Assembly: GCA_965250045.1 (NCBI GenBank)
Contig: OZ252286.1
Span: 2,034,355-2,098,354, forward strand
DNA from: Candidatus Marinacidobacterium sp.
GTDB lineage: Bacteria > Acidobacteriota > Vicinamibacteria > Marinacidobacterales > Marinacidobacteraceae
Direction: 5' to 3'
Length of the DNA: 64,000 nucleotides
Both the position numbers and the translations under genes were made by a program. Each line of letters opens with the position of its first letter. Within the stretch, counting starts at the first letter, position 1. The notes under the pieces were generated by a model, which saw only the letters and a list, made by a program, of their open reading frames with translations, was not told the origin of the DNA and made no database searches. Positions 1 to 61,990 of the stretch are shown piece after piece.

Positions 1-671
1 GCCCCACCCGCGAGCCGCTCGACCCGGTGCGCTACCTGACGAACCGCTCCTCCGGCCGGATGGGTGCGGCGCTCGCGGCGGCCGCCGCGGCGCGGGGCGC
101 CGAAGTCACCCTCATCCTCGGCCCCACAACGCTCGAACCCGAAAACACCACTCGAGTCGTCCGGGTCGAGACCGCCGTCGAGATGCGGGACGCCGCTTTC
201 GCCGCCGCCGCCACCGCCGACGCGCTGATCATGGCGGCCGCCGTCGCCGACTTCCGCCCCGCCTCCAACTCCTCAACCAAGATCAAATCCGCCGGCCTCC
301 GGTACCGCACGGCCGCCGGCTCCATCCCCCTCGTCCCGAACCCCGACATCCTCGCCGAACTCGGCGCCGCCCGCGCCGACAACCCCGCCGCCGGCCCGAG
401 GGTGCTGGTCGGCTTCGCCGCCGAGACCGGCGACCCCGAAGCCGAGGCCCGGAGAAAGCTCGAAGCGAAGCAATGCGACCTGGTCGTCGGCAACCGGGTG
501 GGGCAGGGCCGGGTCTTCGGCCTCGACCAAACCCAGGCGGTGCTCGTCGAGCGCCCGGTTGGCGCTGCTGCCGGCGACTCCCCGTCGGTCAGCCGCCGGG
601 AACCCGAATCGAAGCGCTCGCTCGCGGACGCCGTCTGCGACATCGTCGCCCGCCGCCTCGCATCCGGCTGA
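1..671 (+). CDS. coaBC: 3' portion of bifunctional phosphopantothenoylcysteine decarboxylase / phosphopantothenate-cysteine ligase (CoaB domain); the 5' end lies before the window
   Basis: ORF 27..671 carries CoaB-like motifs (AAVADFRP, KIKS, NPDIL) and reads open to position 1; the start is outside the window. Confidence 0.65.
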   Translation, partial: PTREPLDPVRYLTNRSSGRMGAALAAAAAARGAEVTLILGPTTLEPENTTRVVRVETAVEMRDAAFAAAATADALIMAAAVADFRPASNSSTKIKSAGLRYRTAAGSIPLVPNPDILAELGAARADNPAAGPRVLVGFAAETGDPEAEARRKLEAKQCDLVVGNRVGQGRVFGLDQTQAVLVERPVGAAAGDSPSVSRREPESKRSLADAVCDIVARRLASG

Positions 672-709
672 CCACCCCGGGAAACGGAACCGCGCCCGCG
701 CCAAAAGCC

Positions 710-1426
710 ATGCCGCCACCGGGAAGCGACCTCCGCGCCCAGCTCGCGGCCCGCCTCCGCCTCCTCAAGAGCTACACCGACTTCCTCCCCACTCCCGCTC
801 CCCCGCCCCCCGCCGAGACTCCCGCCGAGTCCCCCGCCGAAACCCTCGACGCCATCTGGGCGGACCTCGACGGCTGCACCCGCTGCCGCCTTTCGGAAAA
901 GCGGCGCAACATCGTGTTCGGCGTCGGCCGGCCGGACGCCGACCTCATGTTCATCGGCGAAGGCCCCGGCGACAAAGAAGACCTCCAGGGCGAACCCTTC
1001 GTGGGCCGCGCCGGCGGGCTGCTGACCGAGATGATCGAGAAGTGCTTCGAGCGCCGCCGGTCCGACGTCTACATCGCGAACATCGTGAAGTGCCGCCCCC
1101 CAAAAAACCGCAACCCGCACGCCGACGAGGTCGCCACCTGCCTCCCGTTCCTGGAGCGGCAGATCGCCTCGATCCGCCCCCGGGTCATCTGCCTGCTCGG
1201 GAGCGTCGCGGTGAAGGCGCTCTTCCCCGGCGTCCGGGGCATCACGGCGGCCCGCGGGACGGTGTACGAGTTCGCCGGGATCCCGGTGGTGCCGACCTTC
1301 CACCCCGCCTACCTGCTCCGCGCCGACGGCGAGCGGCTCCAGAAGCTGAAGCGCCAGGTCCTCGACGACTCCCGCGTCGCGCTTGAGATCCTGGGGCGTC
1401 CGCGTCCGCCGGCGCCGGGCCCGTGA
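710..1426 (+). CDS. Uracil-DNA glycosylase, family 4 (UdgX-like)
   Basis: Motifs DGCTRC, GEGPG, HPAY and VKCRPP within ORF 473..1426; start moved to in-frame ATG 710 to avoid overlap with coaBC. Confidence 0.8.
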   Translation: MPPPGSDLRAQLAARLRLLKSYTDFLPTPAPPPPAETPAESPAETLDAIWADLDGCTRCRLSEKRRNIVFGVGRPDADLMFIGEGPGDKEDLQGEPFVGRAGGLLTEMIEKCFERRRSDVYIANIVKCRPPKNRNPHADEVATCLPFLERQIASIRPRVICLLGSVAVKALFPGVRGITAARGTVYEFAGIPVVPTFHPAYLLRADGERLQKLKRQVLDDSRVALEILGRPRPPAPGP

Positions 1427-1511
1427 AGGCCCCCACCGGAAGAACTGTGGCCGGCGGTTCCGCACCCCCGCGGCCACCGTGCCGGTGTGAACACCGGCGC
1501 TCCCACCTGAA

Positions 1512-3836
1512 TTGATTGCCGTTGAGGTCGCGGTTCCGCGCCCGCTGCCGGCCACCTTCACCTATGAGGCGCCGGCCTCCCTGCTGCACCCCGGCGAAAC
1601 CACGCTGCCCCCCGGCACCCGCGTGCGGGTCCCCTTCGGCCCCGGCGAGCTGACGGGCGTGGTGCTCGGCCCCGCCGACCCCCAAAAAACCAAACCCGGA
1701 GCCACCAACAAACTCACCCTCAAACCCATCCGCTCGCGCTTCGACGACCCGCTCCCGCCCCTCCCCGAAGACCTCCTCGCCCTCGCCCGCCGCCTCGCCG
1801 ACGCGACGGTCTGCCCGCTCGGCCTCGTCCTCCGGGCCATGCTCCCGGCCTCCCAGCCTCCCGGCCGAACCCTCCAGACCGCCCGGATCACCGCGGAGGG
1901 CTCCGCGCGCCTCGGCGAACCCGACGACCAACCCACCAAACACCTCCCCCGCCTGAGCCAGGACGACCGGCGCATCCTCACGCTGCTCGCCGTCTCCGGC
2001 GGCCCGGTGCCGCTGGTCCGGATCCGCCGCGAACTCGACCTCTCCCCCCGCCGGAGCTTCGCCCGCCTCGAGCGCGAGAGTTTCCTCGCCATCGCCGCCG
2101 AGCGCCTCTCCCCGGAGGTCAGAGATTCCACCCCCCCGACCACCGGACCCACCACCCCGCCGCCGCTCACCGCCCCCCAGCAAAAAGCGGCCGGCGCCCT
2201 CCGAAAAGCCCTCGCCGCCCGCACCTTCGGCGCCTTCCTGCTCGACGGGGTCACCGGCAGCGGCAAGACCGAGGTTTACTTCCAGGCGATCGCCGCCTGC
2301 CTCGAGACCGGCCGCAGCGCCCTCCTGCTCGTCCCCGAGATCGCGCTCGCCTCCCAGCAGGAAGCGCTCCTCCGCGCCCGCTTCGGCCCCGGCCCAACCA
2401 GCCCCGACACCCCCACCCCAACGACCACCACCCCCACCCCCGGCATCGCCGTCTTCCACAGCGGACTCGGCGCCGCCGAGCGCCGCACCGCCTTCTGGCG
2501 GATCCGCCGGGGCGAGGCGCGGATCGTGCTCGGGGCCCGCTCGGCGGTGCTCGCCCCCATCGACAACCTCGGGCTCGTGATCCTCGACGAGGAGCACGAC
2601 GCCGCCTACAAACAGGACGAGGCGCCGCGCTACCACGCCCGCCAAGCCGCCTGGCTCCGCGCCCGCGCCGCCGGCGCGACCATGATCCTCGGCTCGGCCA
2701 CCCCCTCGCTCGAAGCGGCCCACGCCGCCGACTCCGGCGCCCTCACCCGGCTCCGCCTCCCGGAACGAATCGCCGGCCGCCGGCTGCCCGAAGTCGAAAT
2801 CGTGGACATGCGCCCCCTCTTCCACGAGCACTACAAAAACCCCGCCCGCCGCGGGCCGCTGATCCTCTCCCCCGACCTCGAAACCGCGCTCAAGGAAACC
2901 GTCGCCGCCGGCCGGCAGGCGCTCGTCCTCCTGAACCGGCGCGGCTACGGAGGGCGGATGGCATGCCTGCGCTGCGGCGAGATCGTCGAATGCCGCCGCT
3001 GCGGCGTCGCGCTCACCCTCCACCGGCGCGGGAGCCTCGCCGTCTGTCACGCCTGCGGGGTTGGGATGGCGCCGCCCGAGGAATGCCCGGCCTGCGGCGG
3101 TGACGTGCTCCGCTCCGAGGGCTTCGGAACCGAGCGCGTGGAGGAGGAGGTGTCCCGTCTCCTCCCCGACGTCCGGGTCGAGCGCTTCGACCGGGACACC
3201 ACCCGCGCCCGCGGCAGCCACGCCCGGACGCTCGACGCCTTCCGGCGGGGCGAGACCCGGGTGCTGGTGGGGACGCAGATGATCGCGAAGGGTCACGACT
3301 TCCCCGCCGTCACCTTGGTCGGGGTGGTGGCCGCCGACGGAGGGCTCGGCGCGCCCGATTTCCGGGCCGCCGAACGCACCTTCCAGCTCCTCACCCAAGT
3401 GGCGGGGCGGGCGGGCCGCGGGGAGAGCCCCGGCCGGGTCCTGATCCAGACGATGAAGCCCGACCACTACGCGGTCGCCGCCGCCGCCCGGCAGGATTAC
3501 CCGGCGTTCTTCGCCGTCGAGCGGGAGATGCGGCGCCGCTTCCGCTACCCCCCGTTCGTGCGCCTCGCGAGCCTCACGGTGACCGCGCGCACCTCGCGCC
3601 GCGCCGAGGCCGCGGCCGCCGAACTCGCCGAAAACCTCGCCACTCCGGACGCTCCCGCGTCGATCGAAATCGTCGGGCCGGCGCCCGCTCCGGGGCCCCG
3701 TCCGGAGGAGTTTTCACGCTGGCAGATGCTCGTCAAGGCGGCGCCCGCGGAACACCCTGCGCTTCGTCGGCGTCTTCGCCGCCTTCTGGAGGTCCCGGCG
3801 CTCGCCCGCGGACTTACCATCAACGACGATCCCTAG
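1512..3836 (+). CDS. priA: Primosomal protein N' (PriA helicase)
   Basis: Walker A GVTGSGKTEVY, DExH region and Cys4 zinc fingers (CLRCGEIVECRRCG, CHACG..CPACG); TTG start; 774 aa. Confidence 0.9.
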   Translation: MIAVEVAVPRPLPATFTYEAPASLLHPGETTLPPGTRVRVPFGPGELTGVVLGPADPQKTKPGATNKLTLKPIRSRFDDPLPPLPEDLLALARRLADATVCPLGLVLRAMLPASQPPGRTLQTARITAEGSARLGEPDDQPTKHLPRLSQDDRRILTLLAVSGGPVPLVRIRRELDLSPRRSFARLERESFLAIAAERLSPEVRDSTPPTTGPTTPPPLTAPQQKAAGALRKALAARTFGAFLLDGVTGSGKTEVYFQAIAACLETGRSALLLVPEIALASQQEALLRARFGPGPTSPDTPTPTTTTPTPGIAVFHSGLGAAERRTAFWRIRRGEARIVLGARSAVLAPIDNLGLVILDEEHDAAYKQDEAPRYHARQAAWLRARAAGATMILGSATPSLEAAHAADSGALTRLRLPERIAGRRLPEVEIVDMRPLFHEHYKNPARRGPLILSPDLETALKETVAAGRQALVLLNRRGYGGRMACLRCGEIVECRRCGVALTLHRRGSLAVCHACGVGMAPPEECPACGGDVLRSEGFGTERVEEEVSRLLPDVRVERFDRDTTRARGSHARTLDAFRRGETRVLVGTQMIAKGHDFPAVTLVGVVAADGGLGAPDFRAAERTFQLLTQVAGRAGRGESPGRVLIQTMKPDHYAVAAAARQDYPAFFAVEREMRRRFRYPPFVRLASLTVTARTSRRAEAAAAELAENLATPDAPASIEIVGPAPAPGPRPEEFSRWQMLVKAAPAEHPALRRRLRRLLEVPALARGLTINDDP

Positions 3837-3934
3837 GAAATGCCGGGCCTCCGTCCCGCCCTGCCGCTAAGAAGCGCCGAACCCTGCGGAGAGTCAGACC
3901 CTTGGAAATGGCGTTGCGCGCTCCGTACCGGAGG

Positions 3935-3950
3935 AATTACAAACGTAATT
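3935..3950. promoter_or_regulatory. Perfect palindrome AATTACaaacGTAATT in an AT-rich spacer upstream of the HU gene
   Basis: Read directly; 16-bp dyad ~90 bp upstream of ATG 4042 in an otherwise GC-rich genome. Confidence 0.35.
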
Positions 3951-4041
3951 TACGGTGCTCATCCATTGCCCTGCCGACACCTTTTCATGCTTGGGATCGC
4001 ATGCGACAGGCATGCTGCGTTTCGCATACCATGCCGCCGCC

Positions 4042-4311
4042 ATGGTGAAGGCAGACCTTATCAATCGGGCGATGGCGGTCACGGATTTGTCGGCCCAGGA
4101 CGCCCGCGACGCCGTAGAGGCGCTCTTCGAGGGACTCCGGGCGGGTCTTGAACGCGGTGAGCGCGTTGTGCTGCGGAGGTTCGGCGTGTTCTACGCCGCT
4201 CCGCGCAAGACGGGGGTGGCGCGAAATCCGCGCACTGGCGAACCGGTGGGCATCCCCCGGGGACGGGTGGTGCGCTTCCGTCCCAGTCAGAACCTCCGCG
4301 GAGGTTCCTGA
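4042..4311 (+). CDS. HU/IHF-family DNA-binding protein
   Basis: MVKADLINRAMAVTDLS...RNPRTGEPVGIP..VRFRPSQ matches the HU fold signature; in-frame ATG 4042 gives the canonical ~90 aa. Confidence 0.8.
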   Translation: MVKADLINRAMAVTDLSAQDARDAVEALFEGLRAGLERGERVVLRRFGVFYAAPRKTGVARNPRTGEPVGIPRGRVVRFRPSQNLRGGS

Positions 4312-4473
4312 CCCCCAGTCGGGGGAAGACCGGGGGAACGACCGGGGGAAACCGGGGCGAAAGTGTGAGGGGGGCTTGTCCCCCGTTTCACGACACCGGG
4401 GCGCTACTGTCCACGCGCTTCAGTGCCTGACTACGAACCTCCTGGCGTGCCCCCGGCCCGGACCGCGCGACGC

Positions 4474-5820
4474 ATGAAAACCGCGACGCTGTTCGGGCGG
4501 CCGAACGTCGGGAAGTCCACCCTCTTCAACCGCATCGTCGGCGGGCGCCCCGCCATCGTCCATGCCCGGCCCGGCTCCACTCGTGATGGCCGGCTGGAGC
4601 CGGTCGATTGGTGCGGCGTCACCTTCCGTCTCCACGACACCGGCGGGGCGGGGGCGCCGGACGCCTCGCCCTTCGCCCGCGAGATCCGGGCCCTCGCCGA
4701 GAGCACGGCGGCCCGGAGCGACATCGTTGTCTTTATGGTGGACGCCCGCGCGGGCCTGACTCCCGCGGACGAGGAACTCGCCGACGCGCTCCGCCGGGAA
4801 CCGGGCGGCCCCCCGGTGGTGCTCGTCGCGAACAAGGCCGAGGGGGTCCACGAGGCGGGAGCGGTCGAGTTCCACGCGCTCGGGCTCGGGGACCCGTTCC
4901 CGATCTCCGCCGAGCACGGCCTCGGGATCGCCGAGGTGCTCGACCGCATCGTCGAGATCCTCGCCCCGGCTTCCGAGGACTCCGCCGCGGAGGACGAGGA
5001 GGCCCTCCGGGTGGCGATCGTCGGCCGCGCGAACGTCGGGAAGTCCACGCTGCTGAACCGCTTCGTCGGCTACGAGCGCGCCCTGGTCTCGGCCGTCGCC
5101 GGCACTACCCGCGACCCAGTGGACGAGCGGCTCGAGGTCGGCGGCCGCGAAGTCGTGCTGGTGGACACCGCCGGTATCCGCCGGAGCGCCCGCCGCCGGC
5201 CGGTCGAGGGATTCGAGGAGGCGGACGCTCTCGCCGTGCTGATGTCGGAGAAGGCCATCCGCCGCGCGGGGGTGTCCTTATTAATTGCTGATGCGGTGAA
5301 AGGCCCCACCGCACGGGATGCCCAGATCGCCCGGCTGATCGAGGACGCCGGCGGTGCGGTGGTGATCCTGCTGAACCGGTGGGACCTCGTGACCTCCCGT
5401 GCGGCCCGCTGGGCGGAACTCGGTCTCGACGTGCGGGAGCGTCTCCGGCACATCGGCCACGCGCCCATGCTGCGCATGTCGGCGATGACCGGGCAGGGGG
5501 TGGACGCGATCTGGAAGTCGGTCTTCCGCGTCGCGGCGGAGGGAACGAAGCGCATCTCCACCCCGGAGGTGAACCGGTTCCTGGCCCGCGCCTCGCAGCG
5601 CTTCGCCCCCCGTTCGCGCCGGGGCAAGGAGGTGAAGCTCCTCTACGGCTTCCAGTCGGGCGTGACGCCGCCCCGGTTCCGGGTGTTCACGAACTGCCGC
5701 CGCGCGGACATCCTGCCCACCTACCCGCGCTTCCTCATCGGCGAACTCCGCCGCCGCTACGGCTTCGCCGGCACCCCGGTCCGCCTCACCCTCGAGTACA
5801 AGAAAAAACTCTCCCGTTAG
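4474..5820 (+). CDS. der: Ribosome-biogenesis GTPase Der (EngA), two G domains
   Basis: Two P-loops (GRPNVGKSTLFN, GRANVGKSTLLN), DTAG motifs and a KH-like C-terminus; ATG 4474 (MKTATLFG) preferred over GTG 4423. Confidence 0.9.
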   Translation: MKTATLFGRPNVGKSTLFNRIVGGRPAIVHARPGSTRDGRLEPVDWCGVTFRLHDTGGAGAPDASPFAREIRALAESTAARSDIVVFMVDARAGLTPADEELADALRREPGGPPVVLVANKAEGVHEAGAVEFHALGLGDPFPISAEHGLGIAEVLDRIVEILAPASEDSAAEDEEALRVAIVGRANVGKSTLLNRFVGYERALVSAVAGTTRDPVDERLEVGGREVVLVDTAGIRRSARRRPVEGFEEADALAVLMSEKAIRRAGVSLLIADAVKGPTARDAQIARLIEDAGGAVVILLNRWDLVTSRAARWAELGLDVRERLRHIGHAPMLRMSAMTGQGVDAIWKSVFRVAAEGTKRISTPEVNRFLARASQRFAPRSRRGKEVKLLYGFQSGVTPPRFRVFTNCRRADILPTYPRFLIGELRRRYGFAGTPVRLTLEYKKKLSR

Positions 5821-5825
5821 GCGCA

Positions 5826-5853
5826 GGGAACGCCGGTCTTCAGACCGGCACGC
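5826..5853. repeat. Family-A hairpin motif (GGGAACGCC-GGTCttcaGACC-GGCAC variant)
   Basis: Matches the 25-bp family-A motif seen at >=10 loci in this window. Confidence 0.5.
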
Positions 5854-6035
5854 GTGGTCCGCAGGACCGCGCAACGGGCGTACAGCCGTCCTCTTTCACG
5901 GCGCACCGGGAGGTAACGCCGCCCCCCCCGCGGCCCGGTGGGACGCGGGGGGAGGTAACGCCGTCTTCACTGCCGTACAATTCGTGAAGTCCCCCTCCCC
6001 CCCACAAGAAAGGAAGGGCGGAACGGATTTCAACA

Positions 6036-6314
6036 TTGAACAAGGCGGATCTGGCAGCGGCCGTCCGAAGCTTCCACGGCGGCGTTACCGGCGCCGAGGC
6101 CCTCCGGATCGTGGACACCATCTTCCAAAGCGCGGCGGACGGCCTGGCCACCGGCAACACGCTCCGAATCCGGCGGTTCGGATCGCTCGAGGTCCGCTCG
6201 CGCCGTCCCCGGCGGGGCGGTGATCTCCGCACCGGGCGTGTTTTCGTCTCCGCGGCCCACCGGACGCCGTTCTTCCGCCCCGCCCGCGAGCTCCTGAGGA
6301 ATCTTCAATCGTGA
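6036..6314 (+). CDS. IHF/HU-family DNA-binding protein (IHF-alpha-like)
   Basis: MNKADLAAAV...GDLRTGRVF..HRTPFFRPARELL; TTG start; followed by a MerR-family gene as in ihfA neighbourhoods. Confidence 0.75.
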   Translation: MNKADLAAAVRSFHGGVTGAEALRIVDTIFQSAADGLATGNTLRIRRFGSLEVRSRRPRRGGDLRTGRVFVSAAHRTPFFRPARELLRNLQS

Positions 6315-6730
6315 TGGCGGCGAGGGACGGCGGGCTCCAGATTCCGAACAAGCTCTACTTCCGGATCGGCGAGGTCAGCGAGATCACCGGGGTGCAGCCA
6401 TACACCCTCCGTCACTGGGAGATGGAGTTCCCGACGCTGAGCCCCAAGAAGAACGATTCGGGCCAGCGTCTCTACCGCAAGGAAGACATCGAGATGGTGA
6501 ACACCATCCAGCGGCTCCTGCACAGCGAGGGATACACCACCGCGGGCGCCCGTCGCCTGTTGAGTGCGAAGCGCGGAACGCGTCCGGCGGTCCCGAAGCC
6601 TCCTCCCCCGCCCCCGAAACCCGACCCACCGCGCCTCTCGCCGGCCGCGCTCGAAGCGGTGACCGCGGCTCTCGAATTGATGGACCGGAACGACGAGCGG
6701 ATCGCCCGCCTGGAGGCCCCGGAGGACTAG
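6311..6730 (+). CDS. MerR-family transcriptional regulator
   Basis: HTH YFRIGEVSEITGVQPYTLRHWE; 4-nt overlap with the upstream IHF gene. Confidence 0.8.
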   Translation: MMAARDGGLQIPNKLYFRIGEVSEITGVQPYTLRHWEMEFPTLSPKKNDSGQRLYRKEDIEMVNTIQRLLHSEGYTTAGARRLLSAKRGTRPAVPKPPPPPPKPDPPRLSPAALEAVTAALELMDRNDERIARLEAPED

Positions 6731-6746
6731 AATCCGAACGATCCGT

Positions 6747-6823
6747 CGGGACGTGGCGCAGTCTGGTAGCGCACTTGCTTGGGGTGCAAGTGGTCGTCGG
6801 TTCAAATCCGGCCGTCCCGACCA
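6747..6823 (+). tRNA. tRNA-Pro (anticodon GGG)
   Basis: Hand-folded cloverleaf: acceptor CGGGACG/CGTCCCG, anticodon stem CTTGC/GCAAG with loop TTGGGGT, T-loop GGTTCAAATCC, encoded CCA. Confidence 0.85.
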
Positions 6824-6901
6824 CCAAGCGGTTCGGGAGTGGGGGCACTGTCTGGAGTGGCCTCGGATTGTGAAGGCAACCGGCGTTGAGCCCCCACTCC
6901 C

Positions 6902-7069
6902 CCGAACCGCCCGGCGCTTCGCGCCGGGAATCGCAAATCCCTTGCGCGCCGTAGGCGCGCGGCGGCGAGTTCCGATTCGTATTGCCTTTTTGTGAAAGGG
7001 GGGCGGTGGCCCCCCTTTCACACTTTCCCCCCGGTCACGCCGGCGGCGAACCGGAGGTTCGCCGCCTTT
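6902..7069 (+). repeat. Family-C structured repeat (copy 1): four hairpins ending in a GC hairpin plus T-run (terminator-like)
   Basis: Near-identical to 61470..61643 and to the 5' part at 39288..39362; ends GCGGCGAACCggagGTTCGCCGCC + TTTGTTTTTTT. Confidence 0.6.
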
Positions 7070-7279
7070 GTTTTTTTGGCGCGGTCGGCCAAGCCGGATT
7101 TCTCATACTCACGGTCGCAGGAAGGGTTCAACTTGCCGCAACTTGTTGACAATCCGAACAGTTCTTCGTGAAGCTCAGACTCCCGAACGGCGCGCTGGTC
7201 AGGGACCGCCGACCTTGGGCAGTTGCTGTGAAAATGCAGTTGCGCCTAGCCCCCGAAAGAGCGGGTGGCGCGCAGGCAC

Positions 7280-7304
7280 GGGAACGCCGACTTCTGGTCG
7301 GCAC
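7280..7304. repeat. Family-A 25-bp hairpin motif
   Basis: GGGAACGCCGACTTCTGGTCGGCAC. Confidence 0.6.
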
Positions 7305-7496
7305 GCGCGGGAGCGCGAAACCAGCGCCGATGACGCTGCGCCTTACCAACCTGAGGGCAGCACCCTCTTTCAACCCCGGATGGCGCAACCCCGCACTCGG
7401 TGAAGCTGCGCGGCGATCCTTGGTGCTGTCTGCGCCATGGGTGACAGCAGCATTGCGCCACTCGCCCGCCTCCGGCGGGCTGTGCCGGCCGCCACC

Positions 7497-7590
7497 GGGA
7501 GAACTGGCCGGAGGTCGGCGTTCCCTTGCCTGCGCGCCATCGTGCTGGCCGGAGGTCGGCGTTCCCTTGCCTGCGCGCCACCGTGCCGGC
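7497..7590. repeat. Two tandem inverted-orientation family-A units (41-bp period)
   Basis: CCGGAGGTCGGCGTTCCCTTGCCTGCGCGCCA repeated twice in tandem. Confidence 0.6.
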
Positions 7591-7802
7591 CCTCCCCGGG
7601 AGAACCGCCCGCGGCTCATCTTCGTTTCCATCCGTTGATTCCTCCCCGTGAATACCAAGCCTTCGCACCAGCTCGGCGCCCCCCCAAGCCCGGCGCAGAA
7701 GACAAAATCCGGCGCACCGCGGCGCGCCTTCTCCCACCCCCGACAGCTACGCCGACCCGCAATCCGGCGCTCCTTTTCCCCGCTACAATCCCACCCGGCC
7801 GC

Positions 7803-18799: not shown

Positions 18800-19037
18800 A
18801 CAGCCTGTGGACAAAGCCACGAGGCCCAGTTCTCCCGGTGGGGGCTCGACTGGCGATGCATCCCGGCTGAACCGCGCCTCTGCGCGGCGCTCATCGTTGC
18901 GCTTCGGTCGAAATACACTCGGGTCAGTTCTCCCGGTGGGGGCTCCTCCCTTGCGCGCCTTGTCAGCCGGACCCCCACCGGGAGAACTGGGCCTCACCAG
19001 CCTCGACGCTCACGCCACTTTGTCCACCGGCTGTTAC
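18800..19037. mobile_element. Family-B MITE-like element (copy B1) with terminal inverted repeats CAGCCTGTGGACAAAG / CTTTGTCCACCGGCTG
   Basis: TIRs read directly; related copies at 34550..34732, 45775..46440 (array) and 52184..52372. Confidence 0.6.
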
Positions 19038-34549: not shown

Positions 34550-34732
34550 AGTGGACGGCCCGTGAACAAAGCGGCGCGGTGTTCGATCGGCGATGCATCC
34601 CGACTGGACCGCTTCGCTCATCGTTGCGCTCCAGTCGGCATACGCTCGGTATGCCTCCCGAACCGCGCCTTGCCAGTCGGGCGCCTCGCCGATCTCGGCG
34701 CTCACGCCACTTTGTCCAAGGACTGTCAAGAG
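34550..34732. mobile_element. Family-B MITE-like element (copy B2, left end truncated)
   Basis: Shares internal sequence and right TIR CTTTGTCCAAGGACTG with B1/B3/B4. Confidence 0.5.
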
Positions 34733-45774: not shown

Positions 45775-46440
45775 GCGGGCTGAGCAGCCTGTGCACAAAG
45801 TCATGCGGCCCAGTTCTCCCGGTGGGGGCTCGGCCGGCGATCCATCCCGGCCAAACAGCCGGTGGTGAAACCCACGCGGCCCAGTTCTCCCGGTGGGGGC
45901 TCGACCGGCGATCCATCCCGGCCAAACAGCCGGTGATGAAACCCACGCGGCGTTCGACCGGCGATCCATCCCGGCCAAACAGCCGGTGATGAAACCCACG
46001 CGGCGTTCGACCGGCGATCCATCCCGGCTGAACCGAGTCGCTTCGCGCCGCTCGTCGTTGCGTTTCGGTCGGAATACACCAAGTATTCCTCCCTCACGCG
46101 CCTTGTCAGCCGGGCGCCTCCCCGGCCTCGGCGCTCACGTGGGTTCCACCACCGGCTGAACCGAGTCGCTTCGCGCCGCTCGTCGTTGCGTTTCGGTCGG
46201 AATACACCCGGGCCAGTTCTCCCGGTGGGGGCTCCTCCCTCACGCGCCTTGTCAGCCGGGCGCCTCCCCGGCCTCGGCGCTCACGTGGGTTCCACCACCG
46301 GCTGTTCACCGCGTCGCTTCGCGCCGCTCGTCGTTGCGTTTCGGTCGAAATACACTCGGTATTCCTCCCTCACGCGCCTTGTCAGCCGGGCGCCTCGCCG
46401 ACCTCGGCGCTCACGCCACTTTGTCCACAGGCTGCTAAGT
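45775..46440. repeat. Tandem array of family-B MITE fragments (3 x ~60-70 bp subrepeats then 3 x ~150 bp subrepeats)
   Basis: Repeated CCCAGTTCTCCCGGTGGGGGCTCG..., CGACCGGCGATCCATCCCGGCCAAACAGCCGGTGATGAAACCCACGCGG and GCTGAACCGAGTCGCTTCGCGCCGCTCGTCGTTGCGTTTCGGTCGGAATACAC blocks. Confidence 0.65.
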
Positions 46441-49158: not shown

Positions 49159-49340
49159 GGGAACGCCGACCTCCGGTCGGCACAGCCCGCCGAAGGCGGG
49201 CGGCAGGGAAGGACCCCGAGTTCAGGGGTGGTTCACCTCTCGGCCGGAACCCGGGCGTTCAGCGCCATCCAGACGGTTGCGCGGTACACGCCTTTCGCTG
49301 CGCTCCGCGCAGCGGTGCCGACCGGAGGTCGGCGTTCCCG
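49159..49340. mobile_element. Family-A MITE, full copy with 25-bp terminal inverted repeats GGGAACGCCGACCTCCGGTCGGCAC
   Basis: Left TIR 49159..49183 and right TIR 49316..49340 are exact reverse complements; near-identical copy at 61735..61923. Confidence 0.7.
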
Positions 49341-49573
49341 TGCCTGCACGTCGCTCCGCCCGGTGGCCGGGGCGCCGAGACCTGCACCATCCCGGAACTG
49401 CAACTTCGTGCCCAGGCGGGGTGTACGGGAAGACCCGATCATGAGGGTTTCTCCCGGTGGGGCCCGGCACCGCCCCGCGCAGCGGGGCGAAACCGCGCCG
49501 CGCCGCCCCTCCGGATGGCACCCCGCAAACGGAAGGCTTACCCTCCGCCCTACGCCCACCCCGGGAGGTTCCC

Positions 49574-50827
49574 ATGTCCGGCACCCCGTTCTCCCCTCTC
49601 TCCCGTCCCCTCGGCTTCGAGTGCTACCCCTCCGGTCTCGGCCCCAGCCGCCGGGCCTTCCTGCGCGCCGTCGCCAGCACCGCGGCGGGCGCCGCGACCG
49701 CTGGCGCCCTCCCCGGATGTGACACCGCGCCCGGCGCACCGGACGCCGCCCCGGAACCGGCCCCCGCGGCCAGCGCCGCGGATGCGCTGAGTTCCGTCCC
49801 GACCTTCCCCGAAGGAGGCTTCGCCGAGGGCGCCGTCCGCATCGGCTTCAACGAGAACCCGCTCGGGCCGTCACCCAAGGCGCTCGCCGCCATCGCGGCC
49901 GACGGCCTCGCTGCCGGGAACCGCTACAACTACCCCGACACCGTCCGCGACCAGATCGCGGCCCACCACGGCACGACCCGCGAACACGTCCTCGTCGGCT
50001 GCGGCTCGACGGAGTTCCTGCAATTTCTGCCCTGGGGCTTCCTGAAGCCGGGCACGACCAGCCTCGTCCTGCCCGAGATCACCTACGGCTGGTGCGGCGG
50101 GGTGGCGGCGGCGATCGGCGCCGAAGTAATTCACACCCCGATGGGGGCGGAAGGACGACTCGACGTCGCGGCGATGCGGGCCGCCATCCGTCCCGACACC
50201 CGGATCGTGTACGTCGCGAACCCCAACAACCCGACCGGGGCGCCGGTGGCCCACGACGAGATCGTTGCGCTGGCGGAGGCCGTGCCCGAGGGCGGGATCC
50301 TCATCGTGGACGAGGCCTACGCCGAGTTCCTGGCCGAAGGGGGAGATGCGGTATCGCTGGCGCTCGCGGGCGGACCCGTGATCGTGGCCCGGACCTTCTC
50401 CAAGGCGTACGGCATGGCCGGCCTCCGCATCGGTTACGTCGTGGGCTCCGGCCCGATGCTCGAGAAGGCGACCGGCGTCTGGTGGGGCGACTTCGGGCTG
50501 AACACCGCGGCGGCGGTGGCCTGCGGGCCGGCGCTCGCCGACCGGGAGCATGTCGACAACTACGTGCGGACGGTGGACGATGGCCTCGCCGAACTGCGCG
50601 CCGGACTCGGCGAACTCGGCTGCGTTTCCTGGCCGCACCGGGCGCCGTTCCTGATGACGGATCTGGGAAGCGAGGCCCTCCCGGTGGTCCGGGAGCTCTT
50701 CCGGCGCGGGATCTACGTGCAGGACGGCGCCGGCTGGGGTCTCCCGACCTTCCTCCGGATCTCGGTGGGCCTCTCGGAGCACCACCAGGCGCTCCTCGGC
50801 GCCCTCCGGGAGATCCGCATCGCCTGA
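49574..50827 (+). CDS. Class I/II (HisC-like) aminotransferase with twin-arginine signal and lipobox-like Cys
   Basis: SRRAFLRAVASTAAGAATAGALPGC Tat motif; NPNNPTG and SKAYGMAGLRIGY (PLP-lysine) motifs. Confidence 0.8.
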   Translation: MSGTPFSPLSRPLGFECYPSGLGPSRRAFLRAVASTAAGAATAGALPGCDTAPGAPDAAPEPAPAASAADALSSVPTFPEGGFAEGAVRIGFNENPLGPSPKALAAIAADGLAAGNRYNYPDTVRDQIAAHHGTTREHVLVGCGSTEFLQFLPWGFLKPGTTSLVLPEITYGWCGGVAAAIGAEVIHTPMGAEGRLDVAAMRAAIRPDTRIVYVANPNNPTGAPVAHDEIVALAEAVPEGGILIVDEAYAEFLAEGGDAVSLALAGGPVIVARTFSKAYGMAGLRIGYVVGSGPMLEKATGVWWGDFGLNTAAAVACGPALADREHVDNYVRTVDDGLAELRAGLGELGCVSWPHRAPFLMTDLGSEALPVVRELFRRGIYVQDGAGWGLPTFLRISVGLSEHHQALLGALREIRIA

Positions 50828-50949
50828 CGGTAGGAGCCCGGCCTGATCGCCTTCTGTGGAATATCCGCTACGCGAGCTATGGCGTGCATCGACATCCCTT
50901 CGCACAGCATGGCGAAGACCTGAGTTGGGTAGCTTGTTCATGGCGATTA

Positions 50950-51034
50950 GGTTGACAATCTCCCGGATATGGTTGACAATTATGCTACAATAGATTTCCA
51001 GCGTCAACAGTAAGGTTGTCAAAAGGAGAGAACG
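50950..51034 (+). promoter_or_regulatory. Promoter/operator: two direct GGTTGACAAT motifs 21 bp apart, an inverted GGTTGTCAAA copy over the RBS, -10-like GACAAT/TACAAT
   Basis: Read directly; motifs at 50950..50959, 50971..50980, 51014..51023; ~45% GC. Confidence 0.5.
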
Positions 51035-52069
51035 GTGACTGGAGTCCGCGCCCGAGGCGAGAAGATCAGGCGCTTCATTCTTGAGCGTGTGGAGAAATCT
51101 CCGGGCGATGTGGCGAAAGCAACATCCGCGGAGTTTGGGATCACCCGACAAGCGGTCAACAAACACCTTCGGCGACTTCGTGCCAAAGGTGTCCTTCGTC
51201 GATCAGGTAACACCCGCGCCAGCGCTTATCAGCTGGCTCCATTATCGCAATGGCGTCACATCTGCCAGATTGAGCCAGGTCTGGCGGAGGATGTTGTATG
51301 GATGCGTGAGGTTAGAGACGCTCTGGGCGACTTGCCAGACAACGTTCTAGAAATCTGGCAGTATGGTTTCACCGAGATGTTTAACAATGCAATTGATCAC
51401 GCGGATGGCACGCATATTGGGGTTCAGATCAGAAAGACCGCCGCTACCACAGAAATGATGATTACTGACGATGGATACGGCATCTTCAAGAAGATTCAAA
51501 CTGCAATGGGCTTGTTGGATGCACGACACTCGATCTTGGAGCTTTCAAAGGGGAAGCTAACAACCGACCCGACGCATCATACCGGTGAAGGCATTTTCTT
51601 CTCCTCCAGGATGTTTGATCTCTTCGACATCGTTTCCGAAGGGGTTTACTTTTCTCACAGATTCGAAGGTGCAGAAGACTGGATCATGGAAGAAGACTGG
51701 AAGTCCAAGGGAACAGCTGTGTGGATGAGGCTGAATAACCACACGGCAAGAACAACCGATAAGATTTTTGACCAATACAGTTCCGGTGATGACTACGGAT
51801 TCACAAAAACAGTTGTTCCGGTGAGAATGGCCCAATACGGGGAAGACAAGCTTATTTCCCGCTCGCAAGCAAGACGAGTACTGGCACGCATAGAGTTATT
51901 CAAGACCGTTCTATTCGACTTCACAGAAGTTAAGACCATCGGCCAAGCTTTTGCAGATGAGATATTCCGCGTATTTGCCATGCAGCATCCAGAGATCCAG
52001 TTGGTTCCGATTCACGCGAACTCGGAGACAAAGAGGATGATTGCAAGGGCAACACGAGGGAGCGAGTGA
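51035..52069 (+). CDS. Three-domain fusion protein: N-terminal winged HTH + RsbW/SpoIIAB-like GHKL ATPase (HATPase_c) + C-terminal STAS-like domain (DUF4325-like)
   Basis: HTH (GITRQAVNKHLRRLRAKGVL), N-box EMFNNAIDHA, G1 ITDDGYGI, G2-like HTGEGIFF; C-terminal ~90 aa alpha/beta STAS-like; GTG start after RBS AAAGGAGAG; gene GC ~50% vs ~70% background. Confidence 0.7.
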   Translation: MTGVRARGEKIRRFILERVEKSPGDVAKATSAEFGITRQAVNKHLRRLRAKGVLRRSGNTRASAYQLAPLSQWRHICQIEPGLAEDVVWMREVRDALGDLPDNVLEIWQYGFTEMFNNAIDHADGTHIGVQIRKTAATTEMMITDDGYGIFKKIQTAMGLLDARHSILELSKGKLTTDPTHHTGEGIFFSSRMFDLFDIVSEGVYFSHRFEGAEDWIMEEDWKSKGTAVWMRLNNHTARTTDKIFDQYSSGDDYGFTKTVVPVRMAQYGEDKLISRSQARRVLARIELFKTVLFDFTEVKTIGQAFADEIFRVFAMQHPEIQLVPIHANSETKRMIARATRGSE

Positions 52070-52183
52070 CGATAGGGAAACGCGATCCCAATCGTGTGCG
52101 CGCGGCTTTTGGCGGCGGGAGAAAAGCGCGGTCGGCAGCTCAGGTGCGGGCTCATCGCGGCGCGTTCGACTACTGTCCTTGAC

Positions 52184-52372
52184 AGCCTGTGGCAAAATCC
52201 ACGCGGCGTTCGACCGGCGATCCATCCCGGCTGAACCACTCCGCTTCGCTACGTTCTGCGTTGCGTTTCGGTCGAAATACACCCGGTATTCCTCCCTCAC
52301 GCGCCTTGTCAGCCGGGCGCCTCACCGGCCTCGGCGCTCACGCGGGTTTCACCACAGGCTGTTAACGGTTGC
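52184..52372. mobile_element. Family-B MITE-like element (copy B4) with TIR CAGCCTGTGG / CCACAGGCTG
   Basis: Read directly. Confidence 0.6.
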
Positions 52373-53103
52373 AGCATCCCTCCCTTGGATCGCGTCTCGG
52401 AGCGGCACTATCTGTCCCGTCGTCTGCTGGACGATGTGGAAGGCGCGCTGATTCCGGTCGCGCGGTCGGGATGGAGCTCGTGACACACCGGCACCGTGGC
52501 AGGGTCCGTAGGTCACGTCAACCCCCGCAGAATTCAAACTGAGCCACTAACTTCTACTCCACTTTCTTTCCCTCAGAGCCGTCGAAGGTAGATGAAGGAC
52601 AGAAGGAGAGCTAGCGAAAGCGGAACCAGGTTTCCGCCGATCATCCACCGCTCCATCCTCTCCAGCGGCTATTTCGGAAAGGCCCACCACAACGCGAGGT
52701 TGAAGCAAAGTGATCTGGCCGCGGCGGCAACCATGAACCACCCTGACGCGCGATTGGTCGGATACCAGACCTCCGGAGACGAAAGGGTTCTTGGCGTCCG
52801 GAAGCCAAGTATGCGGTTGGGCGACCTTGCCCAGGATCATCGGTATGGACGACGCCAAGACCACTAACGGAACGACGTAGCCGAGCAGGTGTTGGCCGTA
52901 TTCCCTCCAGGTGAACCAGCGTGGCCGGGGGCGTGCTCCGCTTCAGCCCTCGTCTCCGGCTGCCACCGGACACGAGCAATGGTATTCGACGACCCCGACA
53001 GTTGACAGGGGAGGCAGCCACGCAACATCCCGCAGCCAATTCAGCGCCGACATGCTCCGCTGCCAAGATCTGGAGCGCCTGAAGCCGGCTACTAAACGAA
53101 CGT

Positions 53104-54351
53104 TCAGTTCGTCCAAATCTCGCTAACCGGCGCCGCCAGCATCCGGGGATCGCCCATTGGCAGGACGTCCCGTCCCGTATGGAACAGGACCCCGCCGGCG
53201 AAGTCCGATCCGCAACGCTCCGCCAACCGGACGAGCCCGCGCCCGTCGCGAGCGGCAAACGACGAGGAAGCCTTGATCTCGAACCCCCAGGTTCGAGCGC
53301 CGCGGGTCATCACCAGATCCACTTCGACCTGGTCCTTGTCCCGGTAATGCCAGAACTCGAGGTCCGGATCCGTCCAGGCCGCCTGGGCGATGAGCTGCTG
53401 CACGACAAAGGATTCCAGCAGGTGTCCCTGGAGATCCCGGTTCCCGAGCAGGTCGGGGGCGGTTAACGATGCAAGCGTCGCGGCGAGACCGCTGTCCACG
53501 AGATGCGTTTTCGGCGAACGGATGAGGCGTCGGCCCGGGCTGCGGTGCCAGGCCGGCAGGCGGCGAGCCAGAAACAGGCGTTCCAGAACCGCCACGTAGT
53601 GCTCCACGGTGCTGCGGTGGAGATCGGCGTCGCCGGCCAGGCTGGCGGCCCGGAAGAGCCGGCCCTTGCGATTCGCGAGGAGCGCCAGAAGCCGCCCCAA
53701 CTCGCTGGCGTCCCGGATCCGGGCCACATCCCGGACATCGCGTTCGATAACGGTCCGAAGGTATTGGCGGTGCCACGCACGCGTCGTCGCAGGAGTCAGG
53801 GGCAGCACGGAGGGGTAGCCACCCGCCACGATCCGCTCCTCGAGGGTCGGGCCGGCTTCTGCCGAACCGCCTCCGATGCGAGGCCGGAGTCCCCCATCCA
53901 GCAGGAGTCGTAGAAATTGCCCCGGGCGACCTTCTTTCTCGGCCTCCGTCAGCGGTTGGAGGTCCGCGATTGCCATCCGCCCGGCCAGCGACTCGGTGAC
54001 CCGTGGCAGGAGCAGCAGGTTCGCAGATCCGGTCAGCAGGAAGCGGCCAGGCTCGCGGTCTTGATCGACGGACCGTTTGATCGCGGGTAGGAGTTGCGGA
54101 ACTCGCTGTACTTCGTCCAGTGTCACCCGGCGTGGCAAGGCGGCCACGAAGCGCACCGGATCCAGGGCTGCGGCACGCTCGGCCGGGTCGTCATCGAAGC
54201 TGACGTACGCCCGATCACTTGCCAGGCGCTGGACGAGAGTGGTCTTTCCGCTCTGCCGTGGCCCAATGACGGCGACCACCGGCATGTAGGAGAGGTCTCT
54301 CTCGATCGCTGTCGATAGCAGGCGCGGGACGAAGGAGGGTTGGGTGGCCAT
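53104..54351 (-). CDS. AAA+ ATPase of the AAA_14 / DUF4143 family
   Basis: Walker A GPRQSGKTTL, Walker B region LDEVQ, ~415 aa architecture typical of this family. Confidence 0.8.
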   Translation of the reverse strand: MATQPSFVPRLLSTAIERDLSYMPVVAVIGPRQSGKTTLVQRLASDRAYVSFDDDPAERAAALDPVRFVAALPRRVTLDEVQRVPQLLPAIKRSVDQDREPGRFLLTGSANLLLLPRVTESLAGRMAIADLQPLTEAEKEGRPGQFLRLLLDGGLRPRIGGGSAEAGPTLEERIVAGGYPSVLPLTPATTRAWHRQYLRTVIERDVRDVARIRDASELGRLLALLANRKGRLFRAASLAGDADLHRSTVEHYVAVLERLFLARRLPAWHRSPGRRLIRSPKTHLVDSGLAATLASLTAPDLLGNRDLQGHLLESFVVQQLIAQAAWTDPDLEFWHYRDKDQVEVDLVMTRGARTWGFEIKASSSFAARDGRGLVRLAERCGSDFAGGVLFHTGRDVLPMGDPRMLAAPVSEIWTN

Positions 54352-61734: not shown

Positions 61735-61923
61735 CGCCGCCCTCCGGGCAGTTCTCCCGGTGGGGCCCGGCACAGCCCGCCGCAGGCGGGCGGCAGGGAG
61801 GGACCCCGAGTTCGGGGGTGGCTCGCCTCTCGGCCGGGACCCCGGCGTTCAGCGTCATCCGGACGGCTGCGTGGTACACGCCTTTCGCTGCGCTTCGCGC
61901 AGCGGTGCCGACCGGAGGTCGGC
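61735..61923. mobile_element. Family-A MITE (copy near-identical to 49159..49340), preceded by a partial unit at 61695..61734
   Basis: Shared ~170-bp internal sequence and right TIR GTGCCGACCGGAGGTCGGCGTTCCC. Confidence 0.65.
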
Positions 61924-61990
61924 GTTCCCTTGCCCGGCCGCCACCCCCGGGCCCCGCTTGGTAGATTCCCACCCTGGCGGGGCGGCACCT

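Follow-up and report, generated by a model that had tools for sequence, protein, structure and literature searches.

What is a gene of low GC content, encoding what looks like a sensor-type transcriptional regulator, doing in the midst of a GC-rich genome, and how did it come to be there? The question is raised by a locus of Candidatus Marinacidobacterium sp. (Acidobacteriota; Vicinamibacteria) in a stretch of 64,000 nucleotides (GenBank assembly GCA_965250045.1, contig OZ252286.1, positions 2,034,355 to 2,098,354 of the forward strand), called the window here and used for all coordinates unless a relative is named. Local GC content along the window drops from about 0.70-0.73 to 0.47-0.55 at about 50800-52150, and the block carries a gene for a protein in which a winged helix-turn-helix (wHTH) domain, a GHKL ATPase domain and a STAS domain follow one another. 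We read this island, from about 50864 to 52551, as the right-hand remainder of an IS1-family transporter insertion sequence (tIS) that has decayed, a tIS being an insertion sequence (IS) that carries a passenger gene (PMC9330008). The feature is a fused, serine-less relative of the known GHKL/STAS/wHTH regulators and a conserved passenger of IS1-family tIS; that it encodes an ATP-dependent repressor, acting on its own gene and on that of the transposase and now an orphan in the window, is a reading to which we give a probability of roughly 0.6.

The gene and the approximate limits of its domains are as follows.

51035..52069, plus strand: passenger gene, 344 amino acids (aa), GTG start codon, AGGAG 7 nt upstream
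51035-51259, plus strand: wHTH domain, residues 1-75, N-terminal part of the passenger protein
51287-51784, plus strand: RsbW/SpoIIAB-class GHKL domain, residues 85-250, middle of the protein
51818-52066, plus strand: DUF4325 STAS-like domain, residues 262-344, C-terminal part of the protein

The GC content of the gene is 0.505 and its third-position GC (GC3) is 0.554, compared with 0.733 and 0.891 for the adjacent aminotransferase gene (49457-50827) and 0.687 for the whole window. Pfam recognized DUF4325 at residues 278-332 (E 1.9e-15; 56.7 bits against a cut-off of 23) and HATPase_c_2 at residues 96-200, the latter just above its gathering score (28.3 bits against 27.4), while several wHTH models matched residues 6-69, all below their own cut-offs. 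An AlphaFold2 model built with 24 homologues (mean predicted local distance difference test, pLDDT, 74; predicted template modeling score, pTM, 0.66) has three domains. In structure comparisons the N-terminus was matched by winged helices, the GHKL domain was nearest to SpoIIAB and RsbW, i.e., to anti-sigma serine kinases and not to histidine kinases or GHL ATPases, and the C-terminus aligned in Foldseek with the prestin STAS domain. The motifs of the Bergerat ATP-binding fold are an N-box FNNAIDHA (E114-N118-D121), a G1 box DDGYG (D145xG147xG149) and a G2 box HTGEGIFF (G184xG186), and they are kept in 111-120 of 120 close homologues and in 134-150 of 150 representatives of 50%-identity clusters; the predicted recognition helix of the wHTH domain, RQAVNKHL, is invariant in the homologues aligned. 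An earlier examination of this DNA from its letters alone (the sequence-only reading) had thus been right about a low-GC gene at this place, about the motifs NAIDHA and DDGYG and about the three-domain layout, on which the Pfam search and the AlphaFold2 and fold comparisons agree.

NCBIfam and PHROGs searches of the passenger protein returned no functional family, a sequence search against solved structures gave weak ArsR and DesK matches at most, and an exact-protein lookup found no record of the 344-aa product of the window. Because the N-terminus is conserved and a GTG start and a ribosome-binding site are in place, we take the 344-aa form as the real product; the public calls of three close homologues (P0041, P0056 and P0118, 255 aa) begin at an internal Met90 and lose the wHTH domain. 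VapS, the STAS protein of a toxin-antitoxin system, is itself a Pfam DUF4325 protein (62.7 bits, 2.7e-17), and the C-terminal domain of the passenger is for this reason VapS-like. Residue S48 of VapS aligns with Q304 of the passenger. The STAS motif was readable in 119 of 120 close homologues and in 139 of 150 cluster representatives; in all of these the equivalent position, within the family signature DF..V..IG(Q/P/R)AFADE, is taken by Gln, Pro, Arg, His, Lys or Glu, with no case of Ser or Thr. The passenger is therefore a single-chain wHTH + RsbW/SpoIIAB-class GHKL + VapS-like DUF4325 STAS regulator, which on this evidence does not read as a canonical partner switch because its STAS domain lacks the phospho-acceptor serine that defines one.

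The family to which it belongs is very large. More than 7,800 relatives came up in a word-indexed search, and the best 120 are all full-length and 65-97% identical. When the representatives of 50%-identity clusters were searched exhaustively, there were 2,805 matching clusters at E<=1e-3, of which 856 also reached E<=1e-30; the top 150 representatives all have about 340-360 aa and, where they have been given any name, are called 'DUF4325 domain-containing protein'. More than 532 copies were found in a scan of one genome per species. The closest copies (89-96% identical, in the same synteny) are those of metagenome-assembled genomes (MAGs) of Vicinamibacteria and Candidatus Marinacidobacterium, and other hosts include Gamma- and Betaproteobacteria, other Acidobacteriota, Legionellales and more. 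The GC content of the gene lies at least 3 points under that of its flanks in 78 of 86 loci (median 13 points), and such a gap across unrelated hosts is a signature of repeated horizontal transfer, as the sequence-only reading had claimed for the window copy. Between lineages the gene evolves under purifying selection, with a ratio of nonsynonymous to synonymous substitution rates (dN/dS) of about 0.10. Among the Vicinamibacteria copies the ratio is 0.3-1.0, inflated by their very low divergence, and we did not rely on relaxed selection in immobilised copies for that reason. In the same genome pairs (L001, L003, L007, L008 and L009) the synonymous rate (dS) is 0.017-0.13 for the island gene and 0.22-0.27 for the aminotransferase, the latter with a dN/dS of about 0.1; since the dS of the island is far below that of its neighbor (2-15 times lower), the island looks younger than its flanks, and these data suggest that it spread recently among related Vicinamibacteria through homologous recombination, not by simple vertical descent.

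The sequence ahead of the gene contains the following.

50950..50959, plus strand: operator-like direct repeat 1, GGTTGACAAT, exact copy, whose TTGACA also serves as a -35 hexamer
50971..50980, plus strand: operator-like direct repeat 2, GGTTGACAAT, exact copy, whose GACAAT, 17 nt past the TTGACA of repeat 1, is a sigma-70-like -10 hexamer
51014..51023, plus strand: direct repeat 3, in the variant form GGTTGTCAAA (2 mismatches), two periods or 44 bp past repeat 2 and abutting the ribosome-binding site
50979..51007, minus strand: promoter-like site directed toward the remnant of a transposase gene, TTGACG-17 nt-CATAAT, from a sequence scan

Within the 64 kb, GGTTGACAAT occurs exactly only at 50950 and 50971, 21 bp apart, as part of an extended repeat of 15 nt with 13 of 15 positions identical, and the copy expected near 50993 has degenerated. 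These two copies had been noticed before and proposed as an operator, together with an inverted copy over the ribosome-binding site; the two copies are real and their reading as a candidate operator is supported, and GGTTGTCAAA is better read as a third direct copy, which also scores as inverted only because its core TTGNCAA is a palindrome. Counting GTTGACAA with up to 1 mismatch within 160 bp upstream of the gene, we found at least two direct copies in 83 of 84 loci, at least three in 75 of 84, and up to five in some. Spacings are 21 or 22 bp in 172 of 192 cases and mostly 43 or 44 bp in the remainder, so that one degenerate unit lies between; the final copy usually stands 20-34 nt ahead of the start codon. 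The consensus of the array is tAaGGTTGACAAT, with 13 conserved positions, and about 10% of the units family-wide carry a central T (GTTGTCAA), the variant to which the unit at 51014 belongs. Homologues that are only 44-46% identical still have 3-4 repeats at 21-22 bp. The motif is about 43-fold denser upstream of the gene than across the rest of the loci, and none was found elsewhere in the 6-kb flanks. The repeats thus have strong comparative support as a candidate operator, and gene and array have moved between hosts as a unit. In the window and in the relatives L037 and L064, consecutive repeats also generate a plus-strand sigma-70-like promoter (TTGACA-17-GACAAT) with 10 of 12 consensus matches and spacers of 17-18 nt, and minus-strand promoter-like sites lie inside the array of L037 and L064 as well.

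What links this gene and its array to a transposon is the comparison of 87 loci, in which all-against-all clustering of the flanking open reading frames (ORFs) left a transposase as the only recurrent neighbor, apart from a spurious antisense ORF over the repeats. By tblastn the transposase or fragments of it are present in 15 of the 87 loci, always adjacent and divergent, and traces of its start codon are visible in several further loci. L037 and L064 encode full-length divergent transposases of 276 and 282 aa, respectively, which match Pfam DDE_Tnp_IS1 at 6e-8 and 1e-9; the NCBIfam model transpos_IS1 matches the transposase of the relatives at 9e-18, yet below its cut-off, and homologues on plasmids, 54-59% identical, carry the PGAP name 'IS1 family transposase'. 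Only 4-25 nt separate the start codon of the transposase from the first repeat, and the transposase and passenger genes thus share the array as their control region.

A generic inverted-repeat search first gave nothing, and it was a 21-bp pair in L081 that led to a consensus for the ends. The right inverted repeat, ...AATTCAAACTGAG(A/C)CACTACC, is found 56-665 bp past the stop codon in the window and in about 13 other loci, and the left one, GGTAGTG-N3-CAGTTTGAAA or GGTAGTG-N3-CAGTTTGAA, lies beyond the transposase gene or, where that gene has been deleted, right before the repeats. An intact element accordingly runs from the left inverted repeat through the transposase gene (minus strand), 3-5 repeats (tAaGGTTGACAAT, at 21-22 bp) and the passenger gene (plus strand) to the right inverted repeat. 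Both inverted repeats are present in L064, L081, L031 and L087-L090, and in L037 the left one directly follows the transposase stop codon, which puts the minimal element at about 2.3 kb. Three complete elements carry the passenger.

L064, positions 3466-7715 of that locus, 4,250 bp: perfect 8-bp target duplication AGAAAAGG; S4-domain ORF, dCTP-deaminase-like gene, transposase and passenger
L081, 1,333 bp: imperfect 8-bp duplication (6 of 8); passenger alone, without transposase
L031, 1,521 bp: imperfect 8-bp duplication (7 of 8); passenger alone, without transposase

The element of L064 also holds two small ORFs of no assigned identity, and its dCTP-deaminase-like gene matches Pfam DCD at 5.5e-19; dCTP deaminases are known anti-phage effectors. 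Target duplications of 8 bp are perfect in L064, L087, L088 and L089. Members of the IS1 family have ends of the form GGnnnTG and produce target duplications of 8-9 bp (ISfinder), and the elements described here share with IS1-family tIS and mobile insertion cassettes the IS1-type transposase, the GGnnnTG-type ends, the 8-bp duplications and a passenger enclosed by the inverted repeats, as well as the existence of transposase-less derivatives bounded by inverted repeats (L081 and L031). The literature searched contained no relevant description of this passenger family, of ISMhu11 or of passenger regulators in IS1 elements.

Set against these relatives, the island in the window has three further parts.

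50864..50941, minus strand: 5' remnant of an IS1-family DDE transposase gene, with its ATG at 50941-50939, truncated at about 50864 and non-functional
52174..52372, no strand assigned: miniature inverted-repeat transposable element (MITE) of the host, of family B, inserted in the 3' tail of the element and not an original part of it
52411..52551, plus strand: conserved 3' tail with the right terminal inverted repeat, GAATTCAAACTGAGCCACTAAC, at 52530-52551

The transposase stub reads MNKLPNS, followed by a frameshift or a deletion of about 8 nt and then by FAMLCEGMSMHAIARVAD. DNA homology of the window to the related loci L004-6 begins at 50864, and these loci, which read MNKLPGSKRAQILAILCEGMSMRAVARVVD..., stay intact for longer. 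The family-B MITE, which has 25-nt inverted ends and at least five further copies in the window, is missing from L004-6, whose homology resumes at window position 52411, and the tail segment 52411-52544 is common to the window and L004-6. Of the two inverted repeats only the right one is found in the window; the left one is absent. The window copy is consequently an immobile relic from which the left end and the transposase gene have been deleted, and as the transposase is gone, autoregulation is all that can remain, which the orphan regulator probably still performs. The sequence-only reading had described a single-gene island flanked by MITEs at 50830-52100. Its low-GC block is real, and what it took for a single gene with flanks is instead the remnant of a truncated IS1-family transposon, bounded at about 50864-52551; the family-B MITE lies inside the element, between the gene and 52551, and a whole aminotransferase gene intervenes between the island and the family-A MITE (49159-49340).

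The four closest plasmid-borne transposases (those 54-59% identical) belong to sister elements on plasmids of Mesorhizobium, Acidiphilium, Hoeflea and Methylocapsa.

L087, positions 1296-4665, plasmid CP050295: same inverted repeats, perfect 8-bp duplication
L088, positions 1767-4400, plasmid NZ_CP041717: same inverted repeats, perfect 8-bp duplication
L089, positions 555-4778, plasmid NZ_CP011481: same inverted repeats, perfect 8-bp duplication
L090, positions 776-3900, plasmid NZ_CP136863: same inverted repeats

In current annotation none of them is marked as one mobile unit. Beside the transposase, three of the four encode a protein of 367-395 aa that joins an XRE-type HTH to a Peptidase_M78 domain (ImmA/IrrE type), and one encodes a ClpP/SDH-like protease; none has a GTTGACAA array beside the transposase. 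Because elements with the same inverted repeats lack the array next to their transposase gene, the repeats belong to the wHTH-GHKL-STAS passenger and not to the transposase. The HTH + M78-peptidase regulators (of the ImmR/ImmA, IrrE/DdrO and CapH/CapP types) occupy the equivalent slot beside the transposase, between identical inverted repeats, and differ in using a metallopeptidase instead of GHKL/STAS chemistry and in the absence of GTTGACAAT repeats. This arrangement suggests that the transposon lineage has a slot for interchangeable HTH-sensor regulators.

How such a passenger might work is indicated by two systems with the same domain repertoire. CapK (HTH-STAS-GHKL) is switched on by single-stranded DNA (ssDNA) and phosphorylates CapS (STAS-wHTH) on a conserved serine, upon which the CapS dimer dissolves and CapS's own operon and the adjacent immune operon are de-repressed (Chambers et al., EMBO J 2026, PMC13373217); VapK, VapS and VapC follow the same logic as a toxin-antitoxin system, and the two systems demonstrate that a GHKL kinase, a STAS domain and a wHTH can make a transcriptional switch responsive to DNA damage (PMC13373217). 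With CapK/CapS the passenger shares the HTH, STAS and anti-sigma-type GHKL kinase as well as residence in the mobile or flexible genome, and the CapKS repressor autoregulates at its own promoter and can oligomerise along DNA. The differences are that CapK/CapS consists of two proteins (HTH-STAS-GHKL and STAS-wHTH) whereas a single chain is found here in the order wHTH-GHKL-STAS; that CapS has an invariant phospho-serine where this family has Gln, Pro or Arg; that the CapS sites are palindromes and not 3-5 direct repeats; and that CapKS lies upstream of immune operons, whereas here there is no downstream operon and an IS1-family transposase is the divergent neighbor. With VapK-VapS-VapC the likeness lies in the DUF4325 STAS domain of VapS and its GHKL kinase partner, and the passenger differs in that its STAS is fused to the kinase and the wHTH, S48 of VapS is replaced, and a VapC/PIN gene and the antitoxin C-terminal helix are absent. 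When the family profile was compared by hhalign with single sequences of VapK and of VapS, no alignment was significant, and BLASTP against the two was uninformative; the homology to VapS is seen only through shared DUF4325 membership. By analogy, the passenger plausibly works like the CapK/VapK systems without being a member of them. IS1 InsA offers a second parallel, since there too the element would itself encode an HTH protein that represses transposase expression, although InsA is a short HTH protein that binds inverted repeats and the passenger, with 344 aa, is of the sensor type and has a multi-site operator to itself.

The anatomy of the element, the identity of the domains, the conservation of the array, the inverted repeats and target duplications and the link to the transposase are observed; that the protein binds DNA and represses, and what signal it senses, we infer, and we propose the following. 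Protomers would bind the repeats through the invariant helix RQAVNKHL and would oligomerise head-to-tail on one face of the DNA, at a spacing of two turns. Since the array holds both the plus-strand promoter and a minus-strand transposase promoter, binding would repress the passenger's own gene and the transposase gene alike. The GHKL and STAS domains would together form a sensor in which ATP binding or turnover alters oligomerisation or DNA affinity and so de-represses the element, with the serine-less STAS perhaps acting as a built-in partner or pseudo-substrate of the GHKL domain; a stress signal could be the trigger, for instance ssDNA as in the case of CapK and VapK.

Several observations weigh against this proposal. 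About 70 of the 87 loci have neither the transposase nor recognisable inverted repeats and yet keep the gene and array intact, and the gene may for this reason have a function independent of the transposon or use other vehicles; the loci were moreover sampled as the best full-length matches, which biases them toward intact genes. Some copies lie in integrase- or defence-rich islands. The role of ssDNA or DNA damage as the signal would be pure analogy, the domain order differs from that of CapK and VapK, and the comparisons of the passenger family with their sequences were not significant. Finally, the repeats alone would also yield a portable tandem promoter.

The alternative that survives best takes up the first of these points. 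The gene would be hitch-hiking cargo with a function directed at the host or at a mobile genetic element and unrelated to transposition (for example a kinase linked to stress or defence, or an anti-sigma-like factor that targets proteins of the host), which is autoregulated through the repeats and rides IS1-type elements and other mobile DNA. Its persistence with the array where no transposase or inverted repeats are detectable, the strong purifying selection between lineages (dN/dS ~0.1) and the size of the family (856 clusters) all suit such a gene, as do the copies that stand beside restriction-modification, SIR2, GmrSD, AbiJ or integrase genes and the dCTP-deaminase-like gene of the L064 element. 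Against it, no effector or partner gene besides the transposase is conserved among the neighbors in the 87 loci; PADLOC, PHROGs and NCBIfam gave no functional match, tblastn found no match to the passenger protein in plasmid and phage collections, the downstream genes are unrelated housekeeping genes that are often convergent, and the dN/dS of the immobilised Vicinamibacteria copies reaches 0.3-1.0, although low divergence inflates that ratio. We regard cargo of this kind as rather unlikely, though well ahead of the alternatives that follow. Two further readings were rejected: a CapKS-like controller of a downstream operon, given the unrelated and often convergent genes downstream, and a defence system, given that PADLOC, PHROGs and NCBIfam returned no functional family. 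PADLOC matched no defence model, and the wHTH showed at most a weak similarity to Csa3/CARF regulators (E 0.003 or worse). The 'defence-type module' of the sequence-only reading is not supported, in view of the empty PADLOC result, the lack of a conserved effector or partner in the 87 loci and the mostly housekeeping neighbors.

It is improbable that the repeats are merely a portable tandem promoter, to which no dedicated protein binds and in which TTGACA...GACAAT units recreate -35 and -10 hexamers. The match to the sigma-70 consensus in the window, L037 and L064 is good, as described, but conservation spans the 13 positions of tAaGGTTGACAAT, far beyond the hexamers, and the 3-5 copies keep their strict phasing of 21-22 bp across phyla, down to 44% protein identity. 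Additionally, the motif is confined to the array within the 6-kb flanks, and the array is always paired with a protein that has the invariant recognition helix.

Very improbable, too, is a partner switch complete in one chain, with the GHKL kinase phosphorylating the canonical serine of the protein's own STAS domain, although the domain composition fits, SpoIIAB and RsbW have the folds nearest to that of the GHKL domain and the motifs for ATP binding have been kept intact. Ser or Thr never occupies the S48-equivalent position in the 119 and 139 sequences read, and neither a sigma factor nor a PP2C phosphatase is encoded among the neighbors in the 87 loci; compared with SpoIIAB-SpoIIAA and RsbW-RsbV, the phosphorylatable serine, the sigma factor and the phosphatase are all absent and a DNA-binding domain has been attached. 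On both grounds the 'whole partner-switching module' previously claimed for this protein is not supported. That the repeats are replication-origin iterons or transposase binding sites is hardly credible. Phased direct repeats of 21-22 bp beside a winged-helix gene do look like plasmid iterons, and transposon ends can bear multiple phased binding sites, but the loci are chromosomal insertions among housekeeping genes with no plasmid matches, and the array is single and internal instead of one per end, is missing from the sister elements, whose inverted repeats are the same and whose transposase is 54-59% identical, and survives where the transposase gene has been lost.

The surroundings of the element are themselves variable. 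Between its end and the next gene lies a stretch of 552 bp (52552-53103, GC ~0.60) with no Pfam match and no second copy in the window. L009 lacks this stretch, and L003 and L008 have other sequence in its place, which makes it an indel hotspot. The next gene is the following.

53104-54351, minus strand: AAA_14 + DUF4143 ATPase gene (E 9e-25 and 2.5e-43), convergent neighbor of the passenger gene

In the close relatives L001 and L003 the ATPase gene is fragmented or replaced by an ATPase_2 gene, so this flank varies as well. Across the loci, downstream genes are unrelated housekeeping genes and often convergent. Both MITE-like families are multi-copy in the window and recur in the related MAG loci: family B at 45979-46438 (a tandem cluster of three), 34554-34707, 18846-19036 and 52174-52372, and family A at 49159-49340 and 61768-61929, plus fragments. 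Furthermore, L004 and L005 carry an inverted duplication of 273 bp (4194-4466 and 7490-7762 of those loci, ~82% identical), one copy of which overlaps the decayed transposase region by the GHKL-STAS gene while the other stands beside a Type ISP restriction-modification gene.

Returning to the autoregulated repressor of an IS1-family tIS, the sister elements allow a wider and decidedly tentative conjecture, namely that a widespread IS1-type lineage places interchangeable, self-contained stress sensors next to its transposase, either a wHTH-GHKL-STAS protein with its operator or an ImmA/IrrE-type HTH-peptidase, such that transposition would be licensed by DNA damage or host stress and the Gln-bearing STAS would serve as an intramolecular pseudo-substrate. 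These are the same two classes of sensor that gate bacterial immune operons. The present findings extend the GHKL-kinase/STAS/wHTH logic known from CapK/CapS and VapK/VapS to a fused, serine-less architecture and to a new setting, the control of a transposable element and not of an immune operon, and for a very large uncharacterised family they supply a testable role and a target on the DNA. For annotation, the lesson is that an orphan regulator of low GC content can be a transposon fossil from which the transposase has been lost. If the sensor does gate transposase expression, the element would be a tractable model of stress-induced transposition; the timing of insertion-sequence activity is a long-debated question, and this element may reveal by what means some transposons time their jumps.

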